In this document: one piece after another, positions 1,635-27,718 of the stretch | How the letters are laid out: each line of letters starts with the position of its first letter | How positions within the stretch are numbered: the stretch's first letter is position 1 | Assembly: GCA_015064885.1 (NCBI GenBank) | Contig: SVRJ01000030.1 | Location: 1 to 27,718, forward strand | Direction of reading: 5' to 3' | Source of the DNA: Oscillospiraceae bacterium | Lineage (GTDB): Bacteria; Bacillota; Clostridia; Oscillospirales; CAG-272 | Length of the DNA stretch: 27,718 nt | The notes under the pieces: model-generated | What the model saw: only the letters and a program-made list of their open reading frames with translations | Databases searched by the model: none | What the model was told of the DNA's origin: nothing | Translations under genes and position numbers: made by a program

Positions 1635-1741
1635 GGCCACGTCTCCTTCCGGTGAAATTTCCATAATTTTAGGGGTTACATTTTTTACGCTTTAGCATTA
1701 TAATATTAATAGAGGTCAGACTTCAAAAGATGGAGGTAATT

Positions 1742-6550: not shown

Positions 6551-6579
6551 AGATCCCGAGAATATCCTCGGGATCTTTT
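6551..6579. terminator. Bidirectional terminator hairpin
   Basis: 10-bp stem AGATCCCGAG/CTCGGGATCT with a 6-nt loop followed by TTTT. It sits between the convergent stops at 6548 and 6579. Confidence 0.6.
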
Positions 6580-7136
6580 CAGTACGGAAATTCATCCTCA
6601 TCGCTATCCTTATCATCATCGGGAAGAAGGTCAAAGGAATCGAACGGATATATCGGTGTTTCGGAGACAAATTCGGTTTCGACGTCCTTTTTTTTCTGTT
6701 GTTCTCTGGCGATCTTCAGCCATTGTTCCGCATAGTTCTCGGTAAGAGGAGAAAGCTCTGCGCGAAGGACGTATTCGCTTTTTTTATTTTTTCTTTTTTC
6801 CCACGCTTCAAACCAGGCAAGCCATACAATATGCTGCGCACCGTATGAACCGTCAAGAAATTCAGATATTGTTTTCATAGCCGCAAGCTCGATCTTTTCC
6901 GAGCAATCAAAATATTCAAGCAAGCAAAATGCGAATATTCGTCTGACCGGTTCGGAAGGATCGTCAAGCTTTTTGGAAAGCTCGTATTCCTTGTCCGGGA
7001 AATCTTCTTTTATTCTTACGCACGTATCCAGAACAGTTTCCATAGCCTCAAAGAATCTATCCGGTTCTTTTGCTCCAAAGCTATATGCCGACGCGGCCGC
7101 CGCAAGTTTTTCGCAGTACAAATCAAATGTTTCCAT
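6579..7136 (-). CDS. Hypothetical protein with acidic C-terminal tail
   Basis: ORF with alternative starts (TTG 7148, ATG 7142, ATG 7136). GGGGA lies 5 nt before the ATG at 7136. No recognisable family. Tail 'DSFDLLPDDDKDSDEDEFPY'. Confidence 0.45.
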   Translation of the reverse strand: METFDLYCEKLAAAASAYSFGAKEPDRFFEAMETVLDTCVRIKEDFPDKEYELSKKLDDPSEPVRRIFAFCLLEYFDCSEKIELAAMKTISEFLDGSYGAQHIVWLAWFEAWEKRKNKKSEYVLRAELSPLTENYAEQWLKIAREQQKKKDVETEFVSETPIYPFDSFDLLPDDDKDSDEDEFPY

Positions 7137-7159
7137 AAACATCCCCAAAATTTTAAAAC

Positions 7160-7189: not shown

Positions 7190-8587
7190 TCAGAATTCCA
7201 ATGCTTTTTCAAGGTAAGCGCGAAGCTCGGTTATAGGAAGTCTTACCTGCTCCATTGTATCTCTGTCGCGGACGGTAACACAACCGTCATTTTCGGATTC
7301 AAAGTCGTACGTTATGCAGAAAGGTGTTCCTATCTCGTCCTGTCGGCGGTATCTCTTACCGATAGACCCGGACTCGTCGTACTCTACGTTAAAATACTTG
7401 GCAAGCTGCTCGAATACCTCTCCTGCCTGATCTGCAAGCTTTTTAGAAAGAGGGAGAACTGCTGCCTTAACCGGAGCAAGTGCGGGGTGGAGGTGAAGAA
7501 CAACTCTTGTATCGTTCTTTGCTTCGTCAACGACCTCTTCATCGTAAGCATCAACAAGGAATGCGAGGGCTACGCGGTCAGCGCCGAGAGAGGGCTCAAC
7601 AACGTAAGGAACGTACTTCTCGTTTGTTTCGGGATCAAAGAATTCCATAGACTCACCCGAATGATTTGCATGCTGAGTGAGGTCATAGTCTGTTCTGTCA
7701 GCAATTCCCCAAAGTTCACCCCATCCGAACGGGAAGAGGAATTCAAAGTCTGTTGTAGCCTTTGAGTAGAAGCAGAGCTCTTCGGGGCTGTGATCGCGAA
7801 GTCTGAGGTTTTCGGGCTTCATTCCGAGAGAATAGAGGAACTGTTCGCAGTAGTCCTTCCAATACTTAAACCAATCAAGGTCTGTACCGGGGCGGCAGAA
7901 GAACTCAAGCTCCATCTGCTCGAACTCTCTTGTTCTGAATATAAAGTTACCGGGAGTAATTTCGTTTCTGAAGGATTTACCTATCTGGCAAACACCGAAA
8001 GGCATCTTCTTACGTGTTGTTCTTGCAACGTTTTTGAAGTTTACAAAAATACCTTGAGCGGTTTCGGGGCGGAGGTAAAGCTCAGAGGTAGAGTCCTCGG
8101 TTACACCCTGATAAGTCTTGAACATAAGGTTGAACTTTCTTATATCTGTAAAGTCATCCGATCCGCAAGAGGGACACTTTATGCCTTCCTTTGCTATATA
8201 TTCTGCCATTTCGGCATTAGACCAGCCCGCAGGATTAACGTCAAGATTATTTTCAGCCGCATAGTCTTCGATAAGCTTATCGGCTCTGTGTCTGGTTTTA
8301 CAAGCCTTACAATCCATAAGAGGATCCGAGAATCCGCCTACGTGACCTGATGCTACCCAAGTTTCGGGGTTCATTATAATAGCGCAGTCAAGACCTACGT
8401 TATACTTATTTTCCTGTACAAACTTCTTCCACCAAGCCTTCTTTACGTTGTTTTTGAATTCAACGCCAAGAGGTCCGTAGTCCCATGAGTTTGCAAGGCC
8501 GCCGTAGATTTCGGAGCCGGGGAATATAAAGCCTCTGTTCTTGCACAAAGCAACGATCTTGTCCATTGTTTTTGCTCTGTTGTCCAT
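7190..8587 (-). CDS. glyQS: Glycine--tRNA ligase (class II, alpha2 type)
   Basis: 465 aa. '[20 protein letters not shown]', '[25 protein letters not shown]' and the C-terminal anticodon-binding region are characteristic. Confidence 0.95.
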
Positions 8588-8635
8588 TTGAATTTAACTT
8601 CCTTTCGAGATTAAATTATAATTAACTTTATTATT

Positions 8636-9769
8636 TTAATATTGTTTACGGTACGGAAGAAATGCGTTTATGGTCGCATCCTCGCTTACTTTAAATATCA
8701 GCTCTCCGTTTTCTGTGACTTCATTTCCGATAATATCTATCTGACGCTTTCCAAATGCGGAATACCCGTACCAAAGATCCTTATTATCAACAACGTCGTT
8801 TACAGTCATATCGGTTATAAAGTACTTTTGTACCTTTACGAAGGATGCACCCGCGGTCGCATATCCTCCGGGCTGGGTAAGCTTTGAGAGAAATGCTCTT
8901 ACCATATTCATACCGAAATGCTCGATATTCATATTCTGATCTTCGGTGTAACCGTTATAAAGAAGCATCTGCTTAACGCTTTCACCGTCAAGAGTCTGCT
9001 GACCCGCGTTGAAGCTGAAGTTGATTCCGTCCTCAAGACTTGTCTGCGACATATTAACAGAAAGATTTGTATCAATACCTTCTATTTCATCAACAAGATC
9101 ATCAACGTATTCCGAATGCAAAAGAACGTATCTGTCCGGACGTATTCCGGTTATTGAATGAACCGAATTGACTACTCCTTCTATTCCGCTACGGTAAAAG
9201 ACGTCACGCATGAGCAGTCTTTCATTTCCGTAATTTACAAGAGTGTTTGCGGGGAATGAGGTGAAGGTAAACTGTTTGTTCTCCTTATCCATACGAACAA
9301 GCAACGTCACGTCATTATGTACGGTTCTGTACGTGTTTTCTTCAAGTCCTCCGATTATATTCGGGGATCCGTCAAAAGATGTATCTTCACTTCCCTCCTC
9401 GGGAGGAAGAGGAAGACCTGAAACGTTATCCGGAGACGGTGAGACATCGTTTGGGAAGGGCGTTGCACCCGCAACACCTATACTGTTCTTAAGATACGAA
9501 TAATCATAGTCACCGTAGAAAGACGGTCTGTAGTCGGTTATGACCACCAATATGTAGAGAGAATTGCCTTCTATCTTAGTATTAAGAGCGGGGGGCAATG
9601 TAACCTCGTCATCTTCGGGCTCGGTTTCCGCGCTTCCGAACGGGTCAACGATAAATGCTCCGCCGATACTGTTTACAACGATGGCAACTACAAGAAAAGC
9701 CACAACACCAAAGGAGGCGAATGCTATTGCAAAAGAAATCAAAAAATTCTTAACTGTAGAAAACAACAA
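8636..9769 (-). CDS. LytR-CpsA-Psr (LCP)-like membrane-anchored protein, divergent
   Basis: TTG start. N-terminal TM helix, then an LCP-like core ('TLLVRMDKENKQFTFTSFPANTLV', 'ITGIRPDRYVLLHSEYVDDLVDEIEGIDTNLSV') with a Pro/Ser/Asp-rich insert. The family assignment is from recalled LCP patterns, not a search. Confidence 0.4.
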   Translation of the reverse strand: MLFSTVKNFLISFAIAFASFGVVAFLVVAIVVNSIGGAFIVDPFGSAETEPEDDEVTLPPALNTKIEGNSLYILVVITDYRPSFYGDYDYSYLKNSIGVAGATPFPNDVSPSPDNVSGLPLPPEEGSEDTSFDGSPNIIGGLEENTYRTVHNDVTLLVRMDKENKQFTFTSFPANTLVNYGNERLLMRDVFYRSGIEGVVNSVHSITGIRPDRYVLLHSEYVDDLVDEIEGIDTNLSVNMSQTSLEDGINFSFNAGQQTLDGESVKQMLLYNGYTEDQNMNIEHFGMNMVRAFLSKLTQPGGYATAGASFVKVQKYFITDMTVNDVVDNKDLWYGYSAFGKRQIDIIGNEVTENGELIFKVSEDATINAFLPYRKQY

Positions 9770-9806
9770 AACACATCCTTTCTTCGTTTAAAATATATTA
9801 CACTAT

Positions 9807-9835
9807 ATTATACTACATTTAAGATCTTTTTTCAA
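9807..9835 (-). promoter_or_regulatory. Sigma-A promoter TTGAAA-17-TATAAT for the LCP-like-glyQS transcription unit
   Basis: Minus-strand reading TTGAAAaaagatcttaaatgtagTATAAT, about 40 nt upstream of the TTG start at 9769. Confidence 0.5.
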
Positions 9836-9885
9836 GTACCTTAAGAATATTTTTATATCGTATTTGTAAATTTTCATCTTTTCGG

Positions 9886-9921
9886 TGAAAAAAGCACCGC
9901 CGCTCACTTATGAGCGGCGGT
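9886..9921 (-). terminator. Rho-independent terminator of the P-type ATPase gene
   Basis: 11-bp stem ACCGCCGCTCA/TGAGCGGCGGT with a 4-nt loop. On the minus strand it is followed by a U6 run. Confidence 0.8.
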
Positions 9922-9937
9922 AATGATCGGTTTTATA

Positions 9938-12637
9938 TTACTTTTTCTTAAATACTCTGTGGAAGAACTTAAATATCTCAACTATCGGAATTATAGCAAA
10001 TCCGAGAGCCATAGCGATAAGGTATTCCTCAAGTCCGATATTGACCATGCTGAACGTATTTGCGATAGGCTCAACAAGAACTACTACGGAAGTAAGAATG
10101 AGCGAAAGAGCTCCTGCACCCCAGAGCCATTTGTTCTGACCCTTCATTGTGAAGATAGAACCGTGGAGCGAACGCATATTGAAGGAGTGGAAGACCTCAC
10201 ACATAGCGAGGGTAAGGAATGCCATAGTGGTACCGTGGATGCTTTCCTCACCGACGTTAAAGTTACCTACCTCAAGGTAATGTCCTACGAAATAGGAAAC
10301 AAGAGTGATAACTGTAACGAGGAAGCCCTGGTAGAAGACAGCCCAACCGAGACCGCCTGCGAAGATACCTTCATCCGATGCGCGGGGTTTACGTTTCATA
10401 ACGTCAGCCTCGGGCTTTTCCATACCGAGAGCAAGTGCCGGGAAGCAGTCTGTGATAAGGTTTATCCAGAGAAGCTGTACGGGCTGGAATATCGTAAATC
10501 CGATAAGCGTTGCAAAGAAGATCGAAAGCACCTCGGAAAGGTTAGAAGCGAGAAGGAACTGAATAGCCTTACGGATATTATCGTATATTCTTCTTCCCTC
10601 TCCTACAGCAGAAACGATAGTAGCGAAGTTATCGTCTGCGAGTATCATATCGGCAACGTTCTTGGTAACGTCGGTACCGGTTATACCCATACCTACACCG
10701 ATATCCGCATTCTTTATTGAGGGGGCGTCATTAACGCCGTCTCCGGTCATTGCGGTTACCATACCGCGCTTACGCCAAGCGTTTACTATTCTTGTCTTAT
10801 GCTCGGGCTGAACTCTTGCATATACGGAATACTTTGTTACGTCCTCTTCAAACGCTTCGTCAGAGATCTCATCAAGCTGTGTGCCTGTGATAGCCTGGTC
10901 GGGGCTGTCGATAATACCGAGCTGCATAGCGATTGCTACAGCAGTATCCTTATGGTCGCCCGTGATCATTATAGCTCTGATACCGGCTGCCTTACATTCG
11001 TCTATAGCGGGCTTGACCTCGGGTCTCACGGGGTCGATCATACCGACAAGACCTACAAAGCAGAGGTCGTTTTCAACAAGCTCTGCCTCATATACCTCGG
11101 GAGCCGCGGAAAGATCCTTCTTTGCAGCACAGAGAACACGGAGTGCCTTATCAGCCATTGCTTTATTCTGTCCGAGAATAGCAGACTTTATCTCCTCTGT
11201 CATAGGAACAACGTTTCCTTCAACGAGAGCGGAGGTACATCTCTTGAGGACCTCATCCGGAGCACCCTTTGTATACTGAATAACGTTTCCATTTTCGTCG
11301 TTGTGCACGGTGGTCATCATCTTTCTCATAGAGTCGAAAGGAACTTCACCGACACGAACAAATTTTGTCTTTTCTACGGTCTTATCAAGTCCGAGAGCGT
11401 ATGCGTAATTGACAAGAGCACACTCTGTAGGCTCTCCTATAGCAGACTTGGTTTCGGGGTCTATTTCAGCGTCACTGCAAAGAGACATAGCATTTGCAAG
11501 AAGATCCTTGTCGCAAGTATACTCTTCTACAACGGTCATTTTATTCTGTGTAAGCGTACCTGTTTTATCCGAGCAGATTATCTGTGTACATCCGAGAGTC
11601 TCAACAGCGGTAAGTTTTCTGATGATAGCGCTGCGCTTGGACATATTGGTAACACCGATAGAAAGAACTATAGTTACTACCGTTGCAAGTCCTTCGGGAA
11701 TAGCTGCGACCGCAAGAGAGATAGCGAGCATAAAGGAGTTGAGAACGGTATCAAATCCGGCACCGTTTCTGAGAAGCTGGACACCGAAGATTATTACGCA
11801 TATACCTATAACGAGATAGGTGAGTATCTTGGAAAGACCTGCAAGCTTTATCTGAAGGGGGGTTCTTCCCTCCTCTGCCTGAGAAAGTGCGTCTGCAATC
11901 TTACCCATTTCGGTTTCCATGCCCGTACCGCAAACTACCGCCTTACCGCGTCCGTATGCAATAGTACTTCCCATGAAGACCATGTTCTTTCTGTCACCGA
12001 GGGGAACGTCCTTGCCGTTTTCGCCCAGAATAGCGTCATCTGTCTTTGTTACGGGAACAGATTCACCCGTAAGTGCCGCCTCTTCGACTTTCATGCTTGC
12101 GCACTCTATGATTCTGGCGTCAGCGGGAACGGCATCGCCTGCTTCAAGTACTATGATATCACCAACAACGAGGTCCTCGCTCTTAACGGTGATCTGCTTA
12201 CCGTCTCTGATAACCTTACTTGTTGCTGCAGCGATCTCCTGAAGAGCTTCTATTGCTTTTTCCGCCTTGCTTTCCTGGAATACTCCGAGAATAGCATTGA
12301 TGAGGACGACGACAAGAATTATTACAACGTCAGAGGGGAATCCCATATGACCGCTCTCAATTCCCTCATATATCTCGACACCTGCCGATATGGCAGCGGC
12401 AACGAGGAGGATTATGGTCATAGGTTCTGCGAGCTGCTTAAAGAATCTTACTATAAGAGATTCTTTTTTTGCTTCAACAAGCTTGTTTTTGCCGTTTTTC
12501 TCAAGTCTCTCGGCAGCTTCTTTTTCGGTAAGGCCGTCATTTCCGCTTTCAAGAGTTTGAAGAACATTTTGTTTGTCTTCTTCGTAGAATTTCATCTTGT
12601 GATAAAGTTCCTTTCTTAATTTGTTTTTTAATTTCAT
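9938..12637 (-). CDS. P2-type cation-transporting ATPase (Ca2+/Mn2+ pump family)
   Basis: 'CSDKTGTLTQN' phosphorylation motif, 'TGDGVNDAPS' hinge and 10 TM helices, about 899 aa. The start may be the second ATG (MKFYEEDKQ) at 12592. Confidence 0.92.
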   Translation of the reverse strand: MKLKNKLRKELYHKMKFYEEDKQNVLQTLESGNDGLTEKEAAERLEKNGKNKLVEAKKESLIVRFFKQLAEPMTIILLVAAAISAGVEIYEGIESGHMGFPSDVVIILVVVLINAILGVFQESKAEKAIEALQEIAAATSKVIRDGKQITVKSEDLVVGDIIVLEAGDAVPADARIIECASMKVEEAALTGESVPVTKTDDAILGENGKDVPLGDRKNMVFMGSTIAYGRGKAVVCGTGMETEMGKIADALSQAEEGRTPLQIKLAGLSKILTYLVIGICVIIFGVQLLRNGAGFDTVLNSFMLAISLAVAAIPEGLATVVTIVLSIGVTNMSKRSAIIRKLTAVETLGCTQIICSDKTGTLTQNKMTVVEEYTCDKDLLANAMSLCSDAEIDPETKSAIGEPTECALVNYAYALGLDKTVEKTKFVRVGEVPFDSMRKMMTTVHNDENGNVIQYTKGAPDEVLKRCTSALVEGNVVPMTEEIKSAILGQNKAMADKALRVLCAAKKDLSAAPEVYEAELVENDLCFVGLVGMIDPVRPEVKPAIDECKAAGIRAIMITGDHKDTAVAIAMQLGIIDSPDQAITGTQLDEISDEAFEEDVTKYSVYARVQPEHKTRIVNAWRKRGMVTAMTGDGVNDAPSIKNADIGVGMGITGTDVTKNVADMILADDNFATIVSAVGEGRRIYDNIRKAIQFLLASNLSEVLSIFFATLIGFTIFQPVQLLWINLITDCFPALALGMEKPEADVMKRKPRASDEGIFAGGLGWAVFYQGFLVTVITLVSYFVGHYLEVGNFNVGEESIHGTTMAFLTLAMCEVFHSFNMRSLHGSIFTMKGQNKWLWGAGALSLILTSVVVLVEPIANTFSMVNIGLEEYLIAMALGFAIIPIVEIFKFFHRVFKKK

Positions 12638-14504: not shown

Positions 14505-15345
14505 CTTCCTTTCTGCCAAGGTATGCTTCGATAACTTTATCGTTATTCTTTATATCTTCCGGAGTTCCTTTTGCAATTATCTTACCGAAATTAAGTACGG
14601 CGATACCCTCACAAAGTCCCATTACGAGGTTCATATCATGCTCTATAAGAACGATAGCTATCTGGAATTCGTCTCTTATCTTACGGATATTATCCATAAG
14701 TTCGGATGTCTCGGAGGGGTTCATTCCCGCCGCAGGCTCGTCGAGAAGAAGCACCTTGGGATTGGTTGCCAAGGCTCTGAGGATCTCAAGTCGTCTCTGC
14801 GCACCGTAGGGGAGGTTACCCGCCTCGACCTTAGCGAGGTCCTGCATATCGAATATCTTGAGAAGATCGTATGCTCGCTCTGTGGCTTCCCTTTCACTTC
14901 TTCTGTATCTGGGTGTATGGAAAAGCGAGTCAAAAAGATTTTCGCTTATAGAATTTCCGAGTCCGACCTTAACGTTATCTATAACGCTCATATTATTGAA
15001 AAGGCGAATGTTCTGGAACGTTCTTGCGATACCCATTCTGTTGACCTCGCTGGGAAGCTTACCTGCGGTAGACTTTCCATCGAGGAGTATCGCGCCGCGG
15101 GTGGGCTGGTATACGTTGGTGAGAAGGTTAAATACAGTCGTCTTACCCGCTCCGTTCGGTCCGATAAGACCGGATATCTCTGTCCTTCCTATCGCTATCG
15201 AAAAATCGTCAACTGCACGGAGTCCTCCGAAATCTATACCGAGATTTCGGACATCAAGCACAGGTGGCTTATCTACGTCTCTTTCGGGAAGAAGTATATT
15301 TGGTGGAGGAGCAACCATTTTTGTCTTTGGATATTCTTTATTCAT
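14491..15345 (-). CDS. livG: Branched-chain amino acid ABC transporter ATP-binding protein LivG
   Basis: 'GPNGAGKTT' and 'LPYGAQRRLEI', 284 aa, with the LivG-specific N-terminal extension. Confidence 0.88.
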   Translation of the reverse strand: MNKEYPKTKMVAPPPNILLPERDVDKPPVLDVRNLGIDFGGLRAVDDFSIAIGRTEISGLIGPNGAGKTTVFNLLTNVYQPTRGAILLDGKSTAGKLPSEVNRMGIARTFQNIRLFNNMSVIDNVKVGLGNSISENLFDSLFHTPRYRRSEREATERAYDLLKIFDMQDLAKVEAGNLPYGAQRRLEILRALATNPKVLLLDEPAAGMNPSETSELMDNIRKIRDEFQIAIVLIEHDMNLVMGLCEGIAVLNFGKIIAKGTPEDIKNNDKVIEAYLGRKEDENA

Positions 15346-16405
15346 TTGCGCTTCCCTCCTTTACCTTTTTCTTTTCCGCTACCCTTTTTTTCGCCTCTGC
15401 CATCAAGTTCTTTACACTGAATCTTTCTCTTATTGCAATAAGCTTGGGAGAAGCATTAAAGAGCATAAGAAGGATGAGAAGTATAGAATAGATAAGCATT
15501 CTGTAGTCCTGGAGATCTCTGAGCATTTCGGGGAGGATTATCATTATTATAGCTGCAATAACAGATCCTCTTACACTTCCAAGTCCGCCGAGAACAACGA
15601 TAACGAGTATTTCAATAGACATATTGAAATCGAATTTAGCCGCTTTGATAATAGAGAGGCTATGGCCCCAAATAACTCCCGCAATTCCTGCGATAAAAGC
15701 AGCGAGCGCAAATACCATAAGCTTATAGTACGTTATCTTTATACCTGTAGCGTCGGCGGCTATTCTGTTATCTCTGACAGCGGTTATTGCGCGTCCGTGC
15801 TTACTTTTAGCAAGGTTTATAATAAGTATTACCGATACTATAACCGCAACGGCTGCAAAGGGGAGAAGATTCTTCGGGGTCTCATAAATAGGCTCTGTAT
15901 CGTATCCTATCGCTCCTCCCGTAAAATCAAGATTGATTATAACGTTCTTTATTATCTCACCGAAAGCAAGAGTAACTATCGCAAGGTAGTCACCGTTAAG
16001 TCTGAGTACGGGGATACCGATAATTATTCCGAAAACAGCCGCAATGATACCTCCGAACAGCATAGCGATCGGAAGACGTACATAAAGGGGTATCTGCGGG
16101 AATTTTTCAAGTATAGCTACAGACAACATGCTTCCCGAGTATGCTCCCACCGACATAAACGCAGCGTGACCGAGTGAAAGTTCACCAAGAAATCCTACGA
16201 CAAGGTTAAGCGAAACGGAAAGCAAAATATAGCAAGAAAGTGTAATTACCATATTAAGCATCTGTCTGCTTGCACTTCCGCTGTAGATCATTGCGGAATA
16301 TACTGCATAGAATACAATTACTATGTAGATCGTAACGGCGTCACGCGAGATGAGTTTTTTTATCTTGCTTTCACCAAGAAGGTTATTATTTTTCTTTTCG
16401 CCCAT
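15338..16405 (-). CDS. livM: Branched-chain amino acid ABC transporter permease LivM
   Basis: 355-aa polytopic permease with 'GELSLGHAAF'. Overlaps the livG start. Confidence 0.85.
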   Translation of the reverse strand: MGEKKNNNLLGESKIKKLISRDAVTIYIVIVFYAVYSAMIYSGSASRQMLNMVITLSCYILLSVSLNLVVGFLGELSLGHAAFMSVGAYSGSMLSVAILEKFPQIPLYVRLPIAMLFGGIIAAVFGIIIGIPVLRLNGDYLAIVTLAFGEIIKNVIINLDFTGGAIGYDTEPIYETPKNLLPFAAVAVIVSVILIINLAKSKHGRAITAVRDNRIAADATGIKITYYKLMVFALAAFIAGIAGVIWGHSLSIIKAAKFDFNMSIEILVIVVLGGLGSVRGSVIAAIIMIILPEMLRDLQDYRMLIYSILLILLMLFNASPKLIAIRERFSVKNLMAEAKKRVAEKKKVKEGSANE

Positions 16406-17302: not shown

Positions 17303-17477
17303 GACATTTCTCTACGTGAAATGTCCTTTCAAAAAATAATCAAAATTTTCGGTTAAGCGTTTTGCATTTATGCAAATACGCATATTTTATAAATATGATA
17401 ATAACACCTACACGCACCGAGCCCAAGGGCGCGGTGCGCGTAACGTGTAAATAAGTAAATTAAACTAATTGCAGAAA

Positions 17478-18665
17478 TCAGTCAACAACTACAGTCTTGC
17501 CGTTTACGATCTTAAGGATCATAGGCTCTTTAACTGTTTCACCGTCTGCTGTCCACTTCATTGTTCCGGTTGCGCCCGTAACCTCGATTTGGGTCATAGC
17601 TGCTATCATTTTTGCATTGAAGTCTTCGATCGACATAGTAACAACGTTATCAGCGTTAAGTCCGCCCTTTGTAAGAGCTGCAACTATAGTATAAATGCAG
17701 TCATAAGCGTCTGCAGCGAACTGGTCGGGAGTCTTACCGTACTTAGCCTTATAAGCGTCAACAAATGTCTTTGCAACGCCTTCCTGGCTGTCAGCATAGA
17801 AAGGAGTGAGGAGGAGAACGCCTTCAGCGTCTGCTACGTTGTCACCGCACTTTTCGATAAGACCGTCAAGACCGTCTGCTCCGAACCATTCGATATCGAG
17901 AGACATCTGAGCAGCCTGACGGAGGATCTTAGCAGCGTCAGCCGCATAGATCGGGAAAAATACGAGCTCAGCGCCGCTATTCTTGATAGCTGTAAGCTGT
18001 GTTGTAAAGTCTGTGTTTGTAGACTCTGTATACGTCTGCTCTGTAACGATAGTAATACCGAGAGCTGCTGCCTTTGTCTTAAACGTATCAACGTTACCTA
18101 CGCAGTAGTCATTTCCGTTATCATAAAGAATAGCTACCTTTGTTGCAAGGTTCTTATTCTTTATTGTATTAGCTGCGATCTCTCCCTGCTGAGGGTCGTT
18201 AAAGCAAAGTCTGAACGCGTTGGGTTCGCCTATGGAGTCAAGAGCGGATGCGGAGGGAGTGAGGATAAGAAGTCCGTCATTCTTAGCAGCCGCAACGATA
18301 TCCTTGTTCTCACCGGAAAGAGTACCGCCGAGAGATACCTTCATGCCGTCGTCAATGAGCTTACCGTAGCCCTGAACAGCCTTTTCACCGCTTCCGCCGG
18401 AGTCAGCTTCGAGGAGCTTGAGCTCAAATCCGTTGACGCCGCCTTTTGCATTTATCTCTTCAACTGCAAGCTTAGCGCCGTCTCTTACCGAGATACCGTA
18501 GTTAGCATATTCGCCTGTAAGGGGACCAGTGAAGCCGATCTCAAGGATAACCTTACCGTCTTCTGTTGTCTTCCATACATCGTTCTTCTTGCCGCAGCTT
18601 GCGAAGCAAAGTGCTGTCATGACAAGAACTAATGTGATCGCCAAAATCTTCTTTGTTGCTTTCAT
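17478..18665 (-). CDS. Branched-chain amino acid ABC transporter substrate-binding lipoprotein (LivJ/K-like)
   Basis: Lipoprotein signal MKATKKILAITLVLVMTALCFASC. Type-I periplasmic-binding fold motifs ('GPLTGEYANYG', 'ILYDNGNDYCVG'). Confidence 0.85.
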   Translation of the reverse strand: MKATKKILAITLVLVMTALCFASCGKKNDVWKTTEDGKVILEIGFTGPLTGEYANYGISVRDGAKLAVEEINAKGGVNGFELKLLEADSGGSGEKAVQGYGKLIDDGMKVSLGGTLSGENKDIVAAAKNDGLLILTPSASALDSIGEPNAFRLCFNDPQQGEIAANTIKNKNLATKVAILYDNGNDYCVGNVDTFKTKAAALGITIVTEQTYTESTNTDFTTQLTAIKNSGAELVFFPIYAADAAKILRQAAQMSLDIEWFGADGLDGLIEKCGDNVADAEGVLLLTPFYADSQEGVAKTFVDAYKAKYGKTPDQFAADAYDCIYTIVAALTKGGLNADNVVTMSIEDFNAKMIAAMTQIEVTGATGTMKWTADGETVKEPMILKIVNGKTVVVD

Positions 18666-18916: not shown

Positions 18917-19264
18917 TCATCCCTGTAATCCAAACGACACAGCGATAGCATTGTTTATTTCGCTCATAGATTCATCGTCAAGGTGGCCCATCTTTTCCTT
19001 GAGCCGCTGCTTATCTATAGTTCTTACCTGCTCGAGCAAAACGACAGAGTCCTTGGAAAGCCCTACCTTATCCGCATAAAGATCTATATGTGTAGGAAGC
19101 TTGGCTTTTTCCATACGCGAGGTTATTGCTGCCGCTATTACCGTGGGACTGTACTTATTTCCCACGTCATTCTGGATTATCAGAACGGGACGGAGACCTC
19201 CCTGTTCAGATCCCACCACGGGACTGAGATCCGCATAATAAATATCTCCTCTTTTTATGTTCAT
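18917..19264 (-). CDS. ndoA: Type II toxin EndoA/MazF-family mRNA interferase (PemK superfamily)
   Basis: '[58 protein letters not shown]' is near-identical in pattern to B. subtilis EndoA (YdcE). RBS GGAGGAA. Confidence 0.9.
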
Positions 19265-22320: not shown

Positions 22321-22342
22321 CAAAAAAACAAGGAAGCCGAAG
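22321..22342 (-). terminator. Terminator of secreted protein A gene
   Basis: CAAGGAAGC-cgaa-GCTTCCTTG followed on the minus strand by UUUUUUUGUUGUUUUUU. Confidence 0.75.
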
Positions 22343-22370
22343 CTTCCTTGTTCTATATTTTAATTGATTA

Positions 22371-23423
22371 TCAGTGCTTTCTCTTAGCTGCAACGAAAGC
22401 TGCGCCTGCAAATGCAATGATAACTGCCGCACCGCTTACGATAGAGCCGCAACCTGCTTCGTTCTTGGGAGCTGCTGTTGTAACAGCGGGAGCCTTTGTT
22501 GTTGTAGAGGGAGCGTTAGTAGCTGTGGGAGCCTTTGTTGTTGTAGCGGGAGCCTTTGTTGTTTCCTTGGGAGTTGTGGGAGCTGCTGTTGTCTCCTCGG
22601 GAGCTTCAGGATACTTATATGCCTTGAGAGCTGTTTCGTCAAGGTACTTCTGATAGTAGAAGCCTGCGTAGTTAAGACGAGGACCGTTGCCTGTATTCAT
22701 TATGCCGTCTGCACTGTTGTACTCGAGGTGGTAGTACTCGAATGTGTGCTCACCTGCTGTAAGGTCAGCTGTGATGTTGTATACACAACCCATCTGATAG
22801 AATTCATATGTCTTGTTAGCAACTGCCTTCTGAGCATCTTCTACAGAGTATACGTAGTTATAACCCTGAAGGAATACAAGCGGAGAATTGGAGATGTTTA
22901 CCTGATACTTCTGACCACCGTCGATTGAGTAAGAGAATCCTCTTTCCTTTTCGGGCTTGCCAACGTTTTCAGCCTTGATCTCTGCACAACCGATAACTAC
23001 GAATTCGTACTTACCCGCTTCGGGAACTGTGAACTTATAAACGGCCTTAGCTGTGGAACCGTCTTCAGCATTGTTCTGCCAGATAGCAGGATACATAAAT
23101 ACGCCTTCATCGATGAAGTGAACGTCAAACTGGATCTGATCCTTGTAGAGTTTCTTATCAAACTTCTGGACCTCGATAGTACGTGTGCCGGAGCCGGGAG
23201 CCTTACCTACGGAAGCAGTAAGATCATACTCGGAAGCATACACGAACTTTGCATCGTCACGGATAATGGGAGTACCGTTCACATACATATCAACAACAGT
23301 CGAGAACTTAACGTTTGCTGTTATATCAATAGCTGTGCATCCCTCCGGAATTGCAGATGTTGATATGGACAGAGCCGAGAACAACATTGCGATCGTAAGA
23401 ATTAAAACAAGTGCCTTTTTCAT
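22371..23423 (-). CDS. Secreted protein A: signal peptide, unknown ~270-aa domain, Thr/Pro/Ala-rich linker, C-terminal 'GCGS'-TM-KRKH anchor
   Basis: Start ATG at 23423 with AGGAGG 8 nt upstream. The track ORF start at 23495 has no RBS. Signal 'MKKALVLILTIAMLFSALSISTSA'. Linker 'TTAAPTTPKETTKAPATTTKAPTATNAPSTTTKAPAVTTAAP'. Tail 'AGCGSIVSGAAVIIAFAGAAFVAAKRKH'. Confidence 0.7.
   Translation of the reverse strand: MKKALVLILTIAMLFSALSISTSAIPEGCTAIDITANVKFSTVVDMYVNGTPIIRDDAKFVYASEYDLTASVGKAPGSGTRTIEVQKFDKKLYKDQIQFDVHFIDEGVFMYPAIWQNNAEDGSTAKAVYKFTVPEAGKYEFVVIGCAEIKAENVGKPEKERGFSYSIDGGQKYQVNISNSPLVFLQGYNYVYSVEDAQKAVANKTYEFYQMGCVYNITADLTAGEHTFEYYHLEYNSADGIMNTGNGPRLNYAGFYYQKYLDETALKAYKYPEAPEETTAAPTTPKETTKAPATTTKAPTATNAPSTTTKAPAVTTAAPKNEAGCGSIVSGAAVIIAFAGAAFVAAKRKH
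22440..22620. repeat. Imperfect tandem ~21-nt repeats (GGGAGCCTTTGTTGTTGTAG-like) encoding the TTKAP linker
   Basis: At least four consecutive near-identical units are visible in the DNA. Confidence 0.6.
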
Positions 23424-23604
23424 TGAAATTTCCTCCTGAAAAATATTAAACTGTGTTCTTACACGCACAGTTATTATGCTATTATTATAGCACACTTCTA
23501 TATTTTTGTCAACCGATTTACAAGCAAAAAAAATTAAATTCTACTTATTATACATATTTTAATAGTAATTTTTGTGCACTTTCACAACAAAAATCGTCTA
23601 AAAA

Positions 23605-23626
23605 GCAGCCCTCCTTTAAGAGGGCT
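23605..23626 (-). terminator. Weak-to-moderate terminator after the flotillin gene
   Basis: 7-bp stem AGCCCTC/GAGGGCT with a 6-nt loop. On the minus strand it is followed by UUUUUAGACGAUUUUUG. Confidence 0.45.
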
Positions 23627-23633
23627 ACAAATA

Positions 23634-25022
23634 TTACTCGTTTTCGGAAGCTGCGGGAGCTTCTTCAACCTTTTTTCCGAGCATTTCGGGAAGCTGCATA
23701 CCTGCAAGCGCGAATACCTCTTCAAGAGGGGGAACAGACTTCATCATGCCGGAGAGGAATCCTGCCGTAGCATTCTTTCCATCCGAATTCTGACCGTTAT
23801 CCCAAACGGTTACCTTGTCTATCTTTATGTTCTTGATAGCATCGACCTGAACACGCATGAGGTCCTCGAGCTTATCTGCGATAAGAAGCTTGAGGGCTGC
23901 TTCCGCATCGCCGCCGGCAGACTTAACGATCTCTGCAAAACCTGCCGCCTGCTTTTTAAGTATCTCTTCCATACCGCGAGCTTCAGCTGCCATCTTTGCG
24001 TAGATAGCGTCAGCTTCACCCTGCGCCTTGCGGCGTATCTGCTCAGCCTCAGCCTCTGCCTCGAGCTCCATCTTTCTCTTCTTAGCTTCTGTCTGAACGA
24101 TAATATCAGCCTCGAGAGTTGCCTGCTCACGCGCACGGCGTGCTTCTTCAGCGGCCTGCTCGGCAGCGTAGGATTCCTCAAGGGCTTTAGCTGCCTGGAT
24201 CTTTTCAGCGGTGGTAGCTATCTTCTGCGCTTCAGCCTCTTTTTCCTTAAGAGCCGCTTCGGACATAGCTATCTTCATCTTTGCTTCGTTTTCACCCTGA
24301 ATAGCTACAGAGTCAGCCTGAGAAACCTTAATACGCTGATCCATATGCGCGTTTGCTTCACCGATAGAACCGTCTCTTTCCTGCTCAGCAACGCTCTTCT
24401 TAGCGTCGTTGATAGCCTTAGCCGCAGCTTCCTTACCGAGAGCTGCAATATATCCGGATTCATCGCTGATATCGGTTACGTTAACGTTGATAAGGCGAAG
24501 ACCGATCTTTTTAAGCTCTGTTTCAACGTTGCTACTTACGGCTGCGAGGAACTTATCGCGGTCTGTATTGATCTCCTCAATGTCCATGGTTGCGATAATA
24601 AGACGGAGCTGACCGAAGATGATATCCTTTGAGAGCTCCTGGATCTCGGAAAGCTGAAGGCCGAGAAGACGCTCTGCCGCATTCTGCATTACGCCGGGCT
24701 CGGTAGAAATACCAACAGTAAAACGAGAAGGAACGTCGATACGGATATTCTGTCTTGAAAGAGCGTTTTTAAGGTCCACCTGGATCGATATGGGAGTAAG
24801 GTCAAGGAAAGCGTATGACTGGAAAACGGGAACTACAAATTCCGCGCCGCCGTGAATACACTTGGCGCTTCTGTTTGTACCGTCCTTATTCTTACCGATA
24901 GAACCGTACACGACCATGATCTTATCTGAGGGGCACTTTTTATATCTTGAGCACGCCCAGATAATAAACGACATAACCACCAGAACGATGGCACACACGA
25001 GAATAACAGTTTCAGATCCCAT
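23634..25022 (-). CDS. floT: Flotillin-like SPFH/band-7 protein (FloT/YuaG-like)
   Basis: N-terminal TM, SPFH domain, long Ala/Glu-rich coiled coil ('AEQAAEEARRAREQATLEADI..EAEAEAEQIRRKAQGEADAIYAKMAAEA') and flotillin C-terminus, 462 aa. Confidence 0.88.
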   Translation of the reverse strand: MGSETVILVCAIVLVVMSFIIWACSRYKKCPSDKIMVVYGSIGKNKDGTNRSAKCIHGGAEFVVPVFQSYAFLDLTPISIQVDLKNALSRQNIRIDVPSRFTVGISTEPGVMQNAAERLLGLQLSEIQELSKDIIFGQLRLIIATMDIEEINTDRDKFLAAVSSNVETELKKIGLRLINVNVTDISDESGYIAALGKEAAAKAINDAKKSVAEQERDGSIGEANAHMDQRIKVSQADSVAIQGENEAKMKIAMSEAALKEKEAEAQKIATTAEKIQAAKALEESYAAEQAAEEARRAREQATLEADIIVQTEAKKRKMELEAEAEAEQIRRKAQGEADAIYAKMAAEARGMEEILKKQAAGFAEIVKSAGGDAEAALKLLIADKLEDLMRVQVDAIKNIKIDKVTVWDNGQNSDGKNATAGFLSGMMKSVPPLEEVFALAGMQLPEMLGKKVEEAPAASENE

Positions 25023-25062
25023 AATAATACCTCCGATATAAATTTTGTTTCTGAATTGTTTT

Positions 25063-25668
25063 TTACTTGCGCTTGACTACAAGCGTTGTCTGTCCGCTGA
25101 GGCCGATAACAACGATCTCACAACCTGTAGGTATAGGCTCTCCCTCATCGGTCACCGCATCACGCTCAACATAGGTACCCTGAAGCAGAACGTTGACCTT
25201 TCCCTCCCCCGTACGAGCGGGAGGAACTGTAAGATATACCCTACCCGAAACACCGAGAGCGTTTCGGTTATCAAGATTGCCGTCGTTGCGAAGGCGCATA
25301 ACAGTGCGCATAAGCAAAGCCAGCACAAGCATCATTAAGAATCCGCATACAGCGGCTACGGGAATAGTTATGAGAAGCATAATTCCCGCGCGGTCCATGA
25401 CAAATCCGACCCATCCGAATACTACAAGAAACGCTATAATACCTCTGATCGAGAATATACGCAAAGCATCCATTCCGTCAAGGTCAACGTCAAATTCGGG
25501 ACCGTCGGCGTCTATAGACTCTCCAACTGAAATATCTCCTCCGTCGGCTTCAAGTCCTATTCCCACAAGCATGAGCACCGTCTGTACAAGCAAGACGACC
25601 GTTGCGGGAATTGCAACACATGCAAATATTTGAGACACGAGGCTCAGAGAATCCCACCAAGCAAACAT
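25063..25668 (-). CDS. NfeD-family membrane protein (YuaF-like flotillin partner)
   Basis: Polytopic N-terminus plus a C-terminal OB-fold-like beta domain ('GRVYLTVP..GKVNVLLQGTYVER..GCEIVVIGLSGQTTLVVKR'). GGAGA lies 6 nt before the ATG at 25668. Directly upstream of floT, as in the yuaF-floT arrangement. Confidence 0.7.
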   Translation of the reverse strand: MFAWWDSLSLVSQIFACVAIPATVVLLVQTVLMLVGIGLEADGGDISVGESIDADGPEFDVDLDGMDALRIFSIRGIIAFLVVFGWVGFVMDRAGIMLLITIPVAAVCGFLMMLVLALLMRTVMRLRNDGNLDNRNALGVSGRVYLTVPPARTGEGKVNVLLQGTYVERDAVTDEGEPIPTGCEIVVIGLSGQTTLVVKRK

Positions 25669-25769
25669 AATAATCTCCATTCTGCCGCATTTGCGGCTGC
25701 TTAAAATTTAAAATGATTAAACCAATACGTTACTTTTGTAACAGTAGATAATATGCGGTAGCGTGCAAA

Positions 25770-26324
25770 TTAATTTAATGACGAAAGAATTTCCTCGGCT
25801 GCACTTCTGGATATGCTCGCATAATGAGCGTATGCCATTACCTGAAGGATCTTGACAAGTCTCTGGCGCGCACCCGGTATCGGCTCTACGTAGTTAGCCG
25901 CTACCTGTTCCGCTGCCGTTCTGACAGATTCTCTGTTTGTAACTATACCTCCGGTATGAGAGATAAGCTCAACGTACTTGTGATACAGCTCACTGTCACT
26001 GATAAGGTCGTCGCTCTCATCGTGGAGCCTGCCGTTGATATACGACAGAAGTCCGCATATGCGATCGAGTTGAATAGACTCACGAAGCATATTAATGATA
26101 ACTATACGTGCAAACTGATCGGCACTGTACTGTCTTTTCACCGGCGGTGAAACAAATTCTCTCTTCACCCAGTTCTGTATCATGTAAGGTTCAAGTCCCG
26201 TCATTACCGAAACCTGTGAAAGAGTTATTCCTCCCGCGGCAAAAATGCCTTCAAACAACATCCGCGAGGTATTCTCGGTTATCCCGGAAACTTCTATTGT
26301 CGTACCCGGTAATGTCTTCAGCAT
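25770..26324 (-). CDS. MerR-like HTH protein, possibly DUF1836/YkrK-like regulator
   Basis: 'ITLSQVSVMTGLEPYMIQNWVKREFV' has the MerR-type HTH pattern, 184 aa. Resemblance to the B. subtilis YkrK (htpX repressor) family is from memory and not verified. Confidence 0.45.
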   Translation of the reverse strand: MLKTLPGTTIEVSGITENTSRMLFEGIFAAGGITLSQVSVMTGLEPYMIQNWVKREFVSPPVKRQYSADQFARIVIINMLRESIQLDRICGLLSYINGRLHDESDDLISDSELYHKYVELISHTGGIVTNRESVRTAAEQVAANYVEPIPGARQRLVKILQVMAYAHYASISRSAAEEILSSLN

Positions 26325-26440: not shown

Positions 26441-26484
26441 AAAAAATCACCCCCGAAAAGGAGTATAAAGCCTCTTTTCGGGGG
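26441..26484 (-). terminator. Terminator of secreted protein B gene
   Basis: 11-bp stem CCCCCGAAAAG/CTTTTCGGGGG with a 13-nt loop. On the minus strand it is followed by UGAUUUUUUGAU. Confidence 0.75.
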
Positions 26485-26507: not shown

Positions 26508-27644
26508 TTATCTGCGTTTTTTTGCGGTTATAACACCTGCAAGAGAAACGAGAGCAATGAGTGTAAGTCCGCTTGTTACTGCGGAGGAGCAGCCGTTTTT
26601 ATTGTCAGGCGGAGCGGTAGTAGTCTCCGGTGAGACTGTAGTTTCGGGAGTAACGGTAGTCGTTTCGGCTGCCGAAGTAGTCACCGTAGGTGTTGGCGTC
26701 GTAACGACAGGCTTTGTTGTAGTTACGGGGACGGTAGTATTTTTAACTTTGTTAAGGCAGATCAAGCAATCAGACCTCATATCCTTCGCATATGACGGAA
26801 CGTGGTATTTTCCTGTAATATAATCGTCGCCTTTATATATATTAACGTTTTTAACTATGATCGGTTCGTTCTCCCTACCAAAGCTCATATTTACGGTAAA
26901 TCCGAGATCGTTATATCCATCCGTGACAAACGAATAATCGAAATCGAATGAGTCAATAAACTGGTACGAATCACATGATGAAGAATAAGGACCTATAAAA
27001 ACCAAACACGTTCTGTCATATATAACAAGAGCAAGATTGCGGAAAGTGCCGCTTGCAATAATTATAGGCTCGAATTCCGCATAAGAGCTCTCGTTGAACT
27101 TATATTTGCCGGCAATTCTTTTTATCCCCTTTTTCGCGCCAAGGTCGCCGTTCCCACCAAAGCGTCCGTAAACACCGTACAGATTTGAATGGTATCTGTT
27201 ATTCGTCTGCATAGGGTCCTTATCAAGGGCTTCAAGCTTTTCTGCCGTGGGAAAATTAACATATACACCTCCTCTGTGATCGGGAAGCAGAATTTCCATG
27301 GCGATAGTATAAACCTTGCCGTCTCCTAACGTAAGGCCGTCGATATTATCCCCGTACCACAAGCTCATATCTTGAGTACTTGCTTTATGAAGAGCAAGAG
27401 TTCTTCCACCGTCAAGTATAGAAACGATTTCGTCAGGATTCAAATCTTGTCTGTCCGAGGAATGAAACATCTTAGAGGTATAAACTCCGGTCGTCTCACC
27501 GAATTTGACTTCATAAAGGAGGTCGCCGTCCTTTGCATCCTCATACGTAGATATAAGAGTATTAGAAGAGGCCTCTGTGGGAACAAAGCCGAACACAGAC
27601 GCAAGAATAACGAACGTAAGAGCTAAAGACAAAGCTTTCTTCAT
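26508..27644 (-). CDS. Secreted protein B: signal peptide, unknown ~300-aa domain, Thr-rich linker, C-terminal 'GCSS'-TM-KKRR anchor
   Basis: ATG at 27644 with AAAGGAG 8 nt upstream. The longer track ORF start is unlikely. Signal 'MKKALSLALTFVILASVFGFVPTEA'. Linker 'TTVPVTTTKPVVTTPTPTVTTSAAETTTVTPETTVSPETTTAPP'. Tail 'NGCSSAVTSGLTLIALVSLAGVITAKKRR'. Confidence 0.7.
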   Translation of the reverse strand: MKKALSLALTFVILASVFGFVPTEASSNTLISTYEDAKDGDLLYEVKFGETTGVYTSKMFHSSDRQDLNPDEIVSILDGGRTLALHKASTQDMSLWYGDNIDGLTLGDGKVYTIAMEILLPDHRGGVYVNFPTAEKLEALDKDPMQTNNRYHSNLYGVYGRFGGNGDLGAKKGIKRIAGKYKFNESSYAEFEPIIIASGTFRNLALVIYDRTCLVFIGPYSSSCDSYQFIDSFDFDYSFVTDGYNDLGFTVNMSFGRENEPIIVKNVNIYKGDDYITGKYHVPSYAKDMRSDCLICLNKVKNTTVPVTTTKPVVTTPTPTVTTSAAETTTVTPETTVSPETTTAPPDNKNGCSSAVTSGLTLIALVSLAGVITAKKRR

Positions 27645-27681: not shown

Positions 27682-27710
27682 ATTATAACATAAAAGCATG
27701 TGCTTGTCAA
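27682..27710 (-). promoter_or_regulatory. Sigma-A promoter TTGACA-17-TATAAT for secreted protein B
   Basis: Minus-strand reading TTGACAagcacatgcttttatgtTATAAT, about 30 nt upstream of the RBS. Confidence 0.55.
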
Positions 27711-27718
27711 TAGCACGT

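Follow-up and report, generated by a model that had tools for sequence, protein, structure and literature searches.

A Gly-Cys C-terminal tail on secreted proteins of uncultured gut and rumen Clostridia and its linkage in relatives to an Lgt paralogue and a CPBP-type protease

Introduction

The locus described here raises the question of what becomes of secreted proteins whose C-terminus consists of a Gly-Cys pair, a hydrophobic helix and a cluster of basic residues. We analyzed a DNA stretch of 27,718 nt (contig SVRJ01000030.1 of an Oscillospiraceae bacterium), referred to as the window, whose main feature, positions 22371-22470 of the minus strand, comprises the final 33 codons, plus the stop codon, of the gene for a protein that we call A. 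This protein ends in APKNEAGCGSIVSGAAVIIAFAGAAFVAAKRKH, and a second protein encoded in the window, B, ends in DNKNGCSSAVTSGLTLIALVSLAGVITAKKRR; we refer to these endings as GC tails. Our results lead us to favor, with moderate confidence, the view that the GC tail is a three-part, Cys-bearing C-terminal sorting signal of uncultured gut and rumen Clostridia, presumably the monoderm counterpart of the MYXO-CTERM and Synerg-CTERM signals, the Cys of which would be lipidated before the helix is removed.

As a kind of system, the combination of a Cys-containing C-terminal signal with a CPBP protease is already known. MYXO-, JDVT-, Synerg- and CGP-CTERM have been united as Cys signals that are cut by Rce1-like CPBP enzymes after a presumed lipidation by an unnamed enzyme; Firmicutes or Clostridia are not mentioned in that work (bioRxiv 10.1101/2023.06.07.544157). 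Cleavage of MYXO-CTERM was demonstrated experimentally for the MrtX/TraA couple, in a study where an 'Lgt-like acyl-transferase' is drawn and housekeeping Lgt is the lead candidate (PMC11980579). It was only in 2023-2025 that Cys signals were tied to these CPBP 'myxosortases', in Myxococcota, Bradymonadales, Proteobacteria, Synergistales and, in the case of CGP-CTERM, archaea. What is new in the present case is the host group, for which neither an outer membrane nor a type II secretion step is in evidence, the signature itself and how widely it occurs in gut metagenomes, the CPBP subfamily and, above all, a co-operonic, non-canonical Lgt paralogue. Our literature searches found no description of a coupling between an Lgt paralogue and a CPBP protease, and none of Cys-CTERM signals in Clostridia.

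Conservation and modularity of the GC tail

Proteins A (350 amino acids; gene with stop codon at 22371..23423) and B (378 amino acids; 26508..27644), both encoded on the minus strand and identified from open reading frame (ORF), translation and homologues (23 orthologues for A, P0024-P0026 for B), have the same layout: a Sec signal peptide is followed by a globular domain, a stalk rich in Thr and Pro, and the GC tail. In A, the N-terminal signal peptide is MKKALVLILTIAMLFSALSISTSA (23352..23423), and a disordered Thr/Pro/Ala-rich stalk of 51 residues (22455..22607; pLDDT below 50 at residues 286-341 of the structural model) precedes the signature G-C-G-S (22443..22454), a hydrophobic helix of 19 residues, IVSGAAVIIAFAGAAFVAA (22386..22442; helix predicted at residues 331-348), and the basic C-terminal cluster KRKH (22374..22385). 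The corresponding elements of B are G-C-S-S (26583..26594), the 20-residue helix AVTSGLTLIALVSLAGVITA (26523..26582) and KKRR (26511..26522). Both signal peptides begin with MKKAL, where we set the start of each protein as in the homologues (the program-listed ORFs begin further upstream), and they show cleavage-like sites between TSA and I in A and between TEA and S in B. A six-frame scan of the window detected GC tails in A and B only.

The 23 orthologues retrieved in a homology search with full-length A were 40-99% identical to it, uncharacterized, and derived from gut or rumen metagenomes or metagenome-assembled genomes (MAGs). The same search also returned unrelated proteins by virtue of stalk and tail alone, namely the B family (P0024-26), two GLUG-domain proteins and one other family, and all the proteins returned end in [GS]-G-C-[GSK]-[SGA] followed by a helix and a basic cluster. 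In an alignment of 21 orthologues (41-81% identical to A), G324 and C325 of A were invariant columns, in a tail whose helix varies, as does the stalk. As this set was picked through the passenger domain, the invariance of Gly-Cys within it constitutes an independent test. Both residues were invariant in each of three alignments. Among the species-representative loci described below, one A orthologue (L038) had S-C in place of G-C.

A profile of 33 tail positions, used for an exhaustive search of 1.84 billion representative proteins, gave 247 matches at E<=1e-3. About 133 of the best 150 involved the extreme C-terminus, the rest being long repeat proteins with other ends. A word-indexed homology search with a 42-residue tail alignment retrieved just 15 short fragments, none of them named. 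In a set of 169 distinct tails, Gly at position -1 and Cys at position 0 were present in 100%, a figure that is partly circular because the set comes in part from a profile that weights these two residues; Gly followed at +1 in 88% and Ser at +2 in 75%, while positions -3 and -4 were mostly Glu or Lys. The uncharged run measured 19-23 residues in 168 of these tails, 3-4 Lys/Arg came after it in 161, and the Cys was located 23-29 residues before the C-terminus. A Sec-type N-terminus was recognized in 75 of 85 full-length GC-tail proteins. This pattern is far beyond chance, and in human and animal gut metagenomes the signal is carried by protein clusters numbering in the hundreds.

These data bear on several claims of an earlier note on this DNA, which had been made from the sequence alone. 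Its observation that A and B share a GC tail mounted on a Thr/Pro stalk was borne out by the sequence, the alignment of 21 orthologues and the 169 tails, and the tripartite architecture of a sorting signal that it had recognized was found again at the extreme C-terminus of signal-peptide-bearing proteins. The possibility it had raised, that just these two proteins carry the tail, without conservation, does not agree with the 247 matches or with the retention of Gly-Cys down to about 40% identity. On the other hand, the x3-S-G stretch that it had included in the signature turned out to be a trait of A- and B-like tails only, as positions +5 to +7 of the 169 tails are just Gly/Ala/Ser-rich.

The earlier note had also considered the tail a module rather than a sign of paralogy, and we reached the same view: the passengers are unrelated, comprising CBM35-like (A), B-family, GLUG, F5/8-type C, Big_3 and CBM9-like proteins. 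A recent duplication as the origin of the tail common to A and B was rejected, since their tail-coding DNA shows no significant nucleotide similarity. On contig L121, which extends past the window end at 27718, two further B-family paralogues with GC tails lie in tandem directly upstream of B (8786-9856 and 10001-11125); with A and B included, this species thus has four or more GC-tail genes in a stretch of about 9 kb. The stalk and tail of these paralogues are 55-58% identical to those of A and their globular domains are unrelated to that of A, which suggests an exchange of modules. The metagenome contigs of this species often break in the repeats coding for stalk and tail (for example L001 2-241 and L120 2-274).

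It could be argued that the tail is a plain, unprocessed membrane anchor, in which Gly-Cys would be kept for a disulfide, for S-acylation without cleavage or for packing at the membrane interface. A stalk, a helix and a basic cluster alone would indeed suffice for anchoring. Nevertheless, such an anchor leaves unexplained why Gly-Cys was found in every one of the 169 tails while the helices diverge freely, and we consider this explanation unlikely.

Comparison with known sorting signals

We compared the tails with the sorting-domain hidden Markov models (HMMs) of NCBIfam release 20.0, using their curated cut-offs, and neither A nor B reached any of them. For A the scores were 18-19 bits with Rumino_NPXTG (NF033846; cut-off 23.5), in an alignment covering only the helix and basic part, and 14-17 bits with GVDTG_CTERM (cut-off 29); for B, 12 bits were obtained with the end of a myxosortase-dependent phytase model. 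The MYXO-CTERM domain model gave no match, with 12-14 bits against the C-termini of individual MYXO-CTERM protein models. LPXTG (TIGR01167) gave 13 bits for a cut-off of 15.9, LAETG was weak and sub-threshold, and PEP-CTERM, GlyGly-CTERM, PGF-CTERM and the remaining models were sub-threshold or unmatched, with weak scores for GVDTG, PVV, PEF and Heimdall. Sortase, exosortase and rhombosortase signals were therefore rejected, given that no model or motif matched.

A variant sortase signal, similar to the NPXTG of Ruminococcus, by which the proteins would be cleaved by a sortase and linked to peptidoglycan, deserves a comment in this regard. Thirteen of 22 related tails gave sub-threshold scores with Rumino_NPXTG (the best being 18.8 bits against 23.5), and weaker ones with LPXTG, LAETG and GVDTG; however, these matches span the helix and basic part only (model positions 5-30), Gly-Cys takes the place of an xPxTG-like motif, and neither the window nor the genes annotated by Pfam in the fetched contexts included a sortase. 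We find this explanation hardly credible.

The nearest known class is Synerg-CTERM. In this signal a Ser/Gly cluster ends abruptly in an invariant Cys without spacer before the helix, and it is confined to Synergistales, where it is linked to MrtS and type II secretion (bioRxiv 10.1101/2023.06.07.544157). When the 22 related tails were scored with its model (TIGR04564), six matched and one passed the cut-off (26.3 vs 22.5 bits), while A and B gave no match at E<=10. The assertion of the earlier note that the tail corresponds to no classical signature thus holds for A and B, which stay below all cut-offs, but not for that one relative. Judging from these scores, the GC tail is a relative of a known class, closest to Synerg-CTERM, and not something unlike everything known.

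Could it be, then, an ordinary Synerg-CTERM member handled by an orthologue of MrtS? The GC tail agrees with the way in which that signal has been described, and there are further likenesses: a basic cluster after the helix, many proteins per genome and a predicted CPBP/Rce1-like enzyme. Against such membership, in addition to the absence of any TIGR04564 match for A and B, stand the scores of the CPBP protein linked to tail genes in relatives (see below), 15-23 bits on the MrtS model (NF040589) with a cut-off of 130. Moreover, Synerg-CTERM has been described only for Synergistales with type II secretion, whereas all hosts found here were Clostridia/Eubacteriales MAGs. The hosts are not diderm Synergistota; the presence of an LCP enzyme and MecA in the window makes them look like wall-bearing Gram-positives, and the fetched contexts showed no genes for type II secretion. 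Finally, the co-encoded Lgt paralogue described below is unreported for Synerg-CTERM. We regard plain membership as very improbable. At the level of annotation a gap remains, as no model of NCBIfam release 20.0 names the GC tail, the linked protease subfamily or the Lgt paralogue.

Gene neighborhood in relatives

Using the A-family alignment we fetched 29 species-representative loci with a match 30-48% identical to A, all from uncultured Clostridia/Eubacteriales MAGs of human, ruminant, horse and other animal gut; in 27 of them the A orthologue carried the tail. A screen for motifs and transmembrane segments, followed by HMMs, revealed a trio on one strand, in which the tail gene is directly followed by an Lgt paralogue and a CPBP/Rce1-like gene. 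It was found in 17 of the 25 informative loci, those whose sequence reaches far enough downstream. Both enzyme genes encode membrane proteins of about 265 amino acids, often with a 4-bp stop/start overlap, and were assigned by Pfam to LGT (PF01790; 88-101 bits) and to the Rce1-like CPBP family (PF02517; 55-59 bits), respectively. After all-vs-all clustering of the flanking genes, the trio alone was common to the loci, whose flanking contexts were of at least four kinds. Three loci encoded another, unrelated GC-tail protein (556-588 amino acids) directly downstream of the A orthologue; in the two that reach far enough (L018 and L025), this second gene stands between the A orthologue and the enzyme pair.

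The search was also made in the opposite direction. A scan of metagenome contigs with the Lgt-paralogue alignment confirmed 385 relatives, and the best 80 loci were fetched. Among these best 80, CPBP was immediately downstream in 47, 15 were cut by the contig end and 19 lacked CPBP. In a neighbor-joining tree the 19 CPBP-less paralogues fell into separate clades, and the large CPBP-linked clade had no informative exception. Of the 35 CPBP-linked loci with a judgeable upstream ORF, 18 had a GC-tail protein (330-914 amino acids) directly upstream; truncated loci provided two more tail proteins, and other CPBP-linked loci had FtsK in that position. The passengers upstream of the pair carried F5/8-type C (discoidin), Big_3 and CBM9-like domains. 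Similarly, look-ups from CPBP homologues found the Lgt paralogue immediately upstream every time, in additional contexts. The searches from substrate to enzyme and from enzyme to substrate therefore converge. The idea of the earlier note that the Cys might be subject to lipid attachment or to processing by a dedicated intramembrane enzyme gains from this result insofar as an Lgt paralogue and a CPBP gene adjoin tail genes in relatives; neither gene is in the window, and the processing itself is a proposal (see below). The plain anchor discussed above also leaves unexplained that tail genes stand repeatedly, and in both search directions, directly upstream of this pair.

With regard to the CPBP-less paralogues, four loci (L074, L076, L115 and L117) contained an Lgt paralogue of the Cys type described below without a neighboring CPBP, in differing contexts. 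In five others (L067, L072, L082, L048 and L071, at about 10000), a Cys-type paralogue was accompanied by an SPFH protein, an ABC-F ATPase and a small protein with three transmembrane segments, with PolA next in three of them.

Nature of the Lgt paralogue and the CPBP protease

All the Lgt paralogues tested scored 55-72 bits on TIGR00544, below its cut-off of 118.9. On contig L019 a canonical Lgt with the signature GRWGNFFNGEAFG, which scored 186 bits, coexists with the linked paralogue, which scored 72. By these scores the linked gene is an additional paralogue and not the housekeeping enzyme. A profile alignment to E. coli Lgt (5AZB) indicated that R143, G145, G154, Y235, R239, E243 and R246 are kept in the paralogue, whereas H103Y, N146C, E151C and L152C changes convert the canonical GRxGNFxNxExxG into GRxGCxxxGCCxG, invariant in all 80 loci. 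Of these changes, the Tyr in place of H103 is shared with the canonical Lgt of L019 and so does not set the paralogue apart. Conservation of the fold family and of two arginines implicated in diacylglyceryl transfer, together with a remodeled signature loop, would fit an altered substrate. The linked Lgt paralogue is a candidate for the lipidating enzyme of MYXO- and Synerg-type systems.

The linked CPBP is a member of PF02517 that lies outside the curated Mrt models. It keeps all the catalytic motifs (FEExxFRG, FxxxH and HxxxD/N) and contains a highly conserved QxGYSFLIGGMC segment. Apart from its values on MrtS, it obtained 17-26 bits on MrtJ (cut-off 75) and 13.7-20.5 on Mrt_core (NF040914; cut-off 100), and MrtC was likewise a weak, sub-cut-off match. 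Because it is only weakly similar to MrtJ, Mrt_core, MrtS and MrtC, it represents a new CPBP subfamily. When 8000 candidates were scored, 1492 homologues had E<=1e-20; of the best 120 listed, a few were named, and these came from Clostridia or Clostridiales MAGs.

An enzyme pair of this kind might serve ordinary N-terminal lipoproteins, in LnsB-like lipidation or N-acylation, the proximity of tail genes being inherited synteny and the tails being dealt with by another system or by none. There is a precedent for this, given that LnsB, a CPBP-type protein of S. aureus, is involved in the N-acylation of lipoproteins (PMC7387801). Many pairs, besides, follow FtsK or GlyRS, which are housekeeping contexts without an adjoining tail gene, and Cys-type Lgt paralogues without CPBP exist. 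Yet the tail genes found immediately upstream of the pair, in differing contexts, belong to five or more passenger families that are unrelated to one another, the tail proteins have type-I-like signal peptides and no lipoboxes, and, as mentioned, one contig encodes a canonical Lgt in addition to the paralogue. This role is, in our opinion, quite unlikely to be the correct one.

Proposed pathway

Returning to the view that we favor, in which the GC tail is a lipidated and cleaved sorting signal, the pathway would begin with the Sec-dependent export of A and B through their N-terminal signal peptides, the features of which are recognizable in the sequence. The C-terminal helix would then keep them in the cytoplasmic membrane; the Lys/Arg cluster would face the inside, as the positive-inside rule predicts, and Gly-Cys would lie at the boundary of the outer leaflet. 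At this location the divergent Lgt paralogue would lipidate the thiol of the Cys, probably with diacylglycerol from phosphatidylglycerol, and a CPBP/Rce1-like glutamic intramembrane protease would cut right after the lipidated Cys, freeing the helix and the basic tail. Our data show the signal, its conservation and modularity and its genetic linkage in relatives; both reactions, and their order, are what we infer, in the case of cleavage by analogy with Rce1 and MrtX. The mature protein would stay on the outer face of the membrane through its lipidated C-terminal Cys, with the Thr/Pro stalk, presumably long enough to cross the wall, pushing the carbohydrate-binding-type domain through it. A more specific proposal, for and against which we see about equal weight, is that of a dedicated 'C-terminal lipoprotein' pathway, in which the Lgt paralogue with the Cys-rich signature would lipidate the Cys and the co-operonic CPBP would be the C-terminal analogue of signal peptidase II.

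This scheme has parallels in several known systems. MYXO-CTERM is also tripartite with an invariant Cys (generic GCGC motif), the CPBP intramembrane protease MrtX is required for its cleavage, and an Lgt-like lipidation has been postulated (PMC11980579); myxobacterial proteins, however, pass to the outer-membrane surface by type II secretion, and MrtX never adjoins its substrates. In the JDVT-CTERM/MrtJ system, substrate and CPBP do occur in one conserved neighborhood and the signal contains a Cys, MrtJ being among the best matches of the CPBP found here. Unlike the present system, it is a one-substrate system of Proteobacteria in whose cassette no Lgt paralogue has been described, and the 75-bit cut-off of MrtJ was not reached in our case. 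CAAX processing in eukaryotes and archaea likewise involves a Cys that is lipidated by a separate enzyme, a prenyltransferase, before an Rce1-family protease cuts just after it. That process is cytosolic, uses a prenyl lipid and removes three residues, while here it would be extracytoplasmic, would remove about 25 residues including the helix and would presumably use a glycerophospholipid donor. PGF-CTERM and its archaeosortase ArtA provide an example of a C-terminal lipid anchor after helix removal in hosts with no outer membrane, with a Thr-rich stalk before the signal, although the enzyme belongs to the exosortase/archaeosortase family, the motif is PGF and not G-C, and the hosts are archaea.

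The N-terminal lipoprotein route (Lgt and LspA) resembles the proposed pathway in that an intramembrane peptidase comes into play after an Lgt-family enzyme and acts beside the modified Cys, and the Gly at -1 and the Gly/Ser after the Cys of the tail resemble lipobox positions -1, +2 and +3. The polarity is nevertheless inverted, the helix of the GC tail being C-terminal of the Cys, there is no hydrophobic L-x-x before the Cys, the peptidase is a CPBP and not LspA, and the Lgt signature is altered (N146C/E151C/L152C). Of note, two proteins of the window have canonical N-terminal lipoboxes (LTLISC at 5658-6548, plus strand, and CFASC at 17478-18665, minus strand), which implies that the organism also uses the ordinary Lgt/Lsp lipoprotein route.

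If the proposal is correct, the cassette names an enzyme class for the lipidation step of the MYXO-, Synerg-, JDVT- and CGP-CTERM systems and provides a testable candidate for the missing lipid transferase, in a three-gene unit small enough for heterologous reconstitution. It would also mean that a new and abundant mode of surface anchoring has to be considered for gut Firmicutes. Most of the passengers look carbohydrate-binding or adhesin-like.

Evidence against the proposed pathway

The main weakness of this proposal is that neither the window nor the contigs of the same species yielded the enzyme pair, and this and several other observations weigh against it. An HMM scan of all window ORFs found no Lgt, CPBP, rhomboid or sortase. 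Nor was the pair present in the flanks of the closest A orthologues (eight contexts from L001-L010, L137 and L138), which contain unrelated metabolic genes, a situation that is also what a plain anchor would lead one to expect. In a relative (L125/L126, 731-7823; GlyRS 81% identical to that of the window), the order is Ca-ATPase, GlyRS, Lgt paralogue, CPBP and ROK kinase, whereas in the window (7190-12637) the Ca-ATPase, the LCP enzyme and GlyRS are followed by a 189-residue acidic ORF without family (6579-7148) at the place where the relative has the pair; the differing orders at GlyRS imply that the locus has been rearranged. With respect to the enzymes themselves, N146 has been reported as essential and H103 as important in E. 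coli Lgt, and both are lost in the paralogue, so that its chemistry may differ or be absent, while the CPBP fails every myxosortase model cut-off (13-26 bits vs 75-195). As for the linkage, Cys-type Lgt paralogues also occur without an adjoining CPBP, a tail gene is missing beside roughly one in two enzyme pairs, and all the loci come from related uncultured Clostridia, so part of the synteny is inherited.

The linkage with CPBP was seen in the relatives (17 of 25 species loci and an adjacent tail gene in 18 of 35 metagenome loci), and in the clade of the window A is unlinked to the enzyme pair. The same-species contigs L001-L004 and L120 showed the gene order of the window; contigs of this organism are present in the ENA assemblies ERZ28436109, ERZ27236851 and ERZ27248436. 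Beyond the window end, the contigs reached through B homologues contained no such enzymes and carried the two tandem B paralogues instead. Three proteins (P0198, P0212 and P0283) were considered as the CPBP of this species and rejected, as they come from other samples. Even so, the strict retention of Gly-Cys in the clade of the window (P0001-P0010) argues that the machinery persists elsewhere in the genome, where we presume that it is encoded.

Genomic context and other features of the window

No Pfam domain was matched in A or B. An AlphaFold model of A, built from the ortholog alignment, had a mean pLDDT of 79.7, with residues 25-280 confident, the stalk disordered and the tail helical. In a Foldseek comparison with the PDB, the globular domain resembled the beta-sandwich of CBM35/CBM6 modules (target-normalized TM about 0.6); based on this model, A is probably a surface carbohydrate-binding protein. 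The globular domain of B contained no recognizable domain.

Upstream of A and of B lie promoter-like sites (23484..23512 and 27682..27710, respectively, minus strand), each a perfect TTGACA-17-TATAAT with an extended TG (12 of 12 positions of the sigma-70 consensus), identified by consensus match only. A hairpin followed by a T-run, typical of a terminator in form, is found directly after the stop codon of A (22325..22354, minus strand) and also downstream of B (26448-26465). From the perfect promoter match upstream and the hairpin and T-run downstream of each gene, A and B are probably separate, strongly expressed units.

Between them, on the minus strand (23634-26324), are genes for a flotillin/SPFH protein (23634-25022), an NfeD-like membrane protein (25063-25680), for which no Pfam match was obtained, and a MerR/DUF1836 regulator (25770-26324). 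These three were rejected as tail-specific partners because A orthologues elsewhere have other neighbors. The remaining ORFs of the window are MecA-like, cytidylate-kinase-like, a MurJ/SpoVB-like flippase, a DUF6198 membrane protein, an EEP-family lipoprotein, GlyRS, an LCP enzyme, a Ca-ATPase, a glutamate racemase, a Liv-type ABC transporter, MazF and sugar-related oxidoreductases. As predicted from these ORFs, the gene content corresponds to ordinary Firmicute functions.

The MazF/PemK-type toxin gene is located at 18917-19264 on the minus strand and scored 129 bits on PF02452. Long antisense ORFs on the plus strand at 10799-12619, 17469-18632, 23574-24632 and 14858-16177, opposite the Ca-ATPase, a solute-binding protein, the flotillin and ABC components, respectively, have Cys/Ser/Leu-rich translations and are taken to be non-coding shadows. 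At the beginning of the window (1-1700, minus strand) there is an open frame of about 563 codons, which is probably part of a gene cut by the window start.

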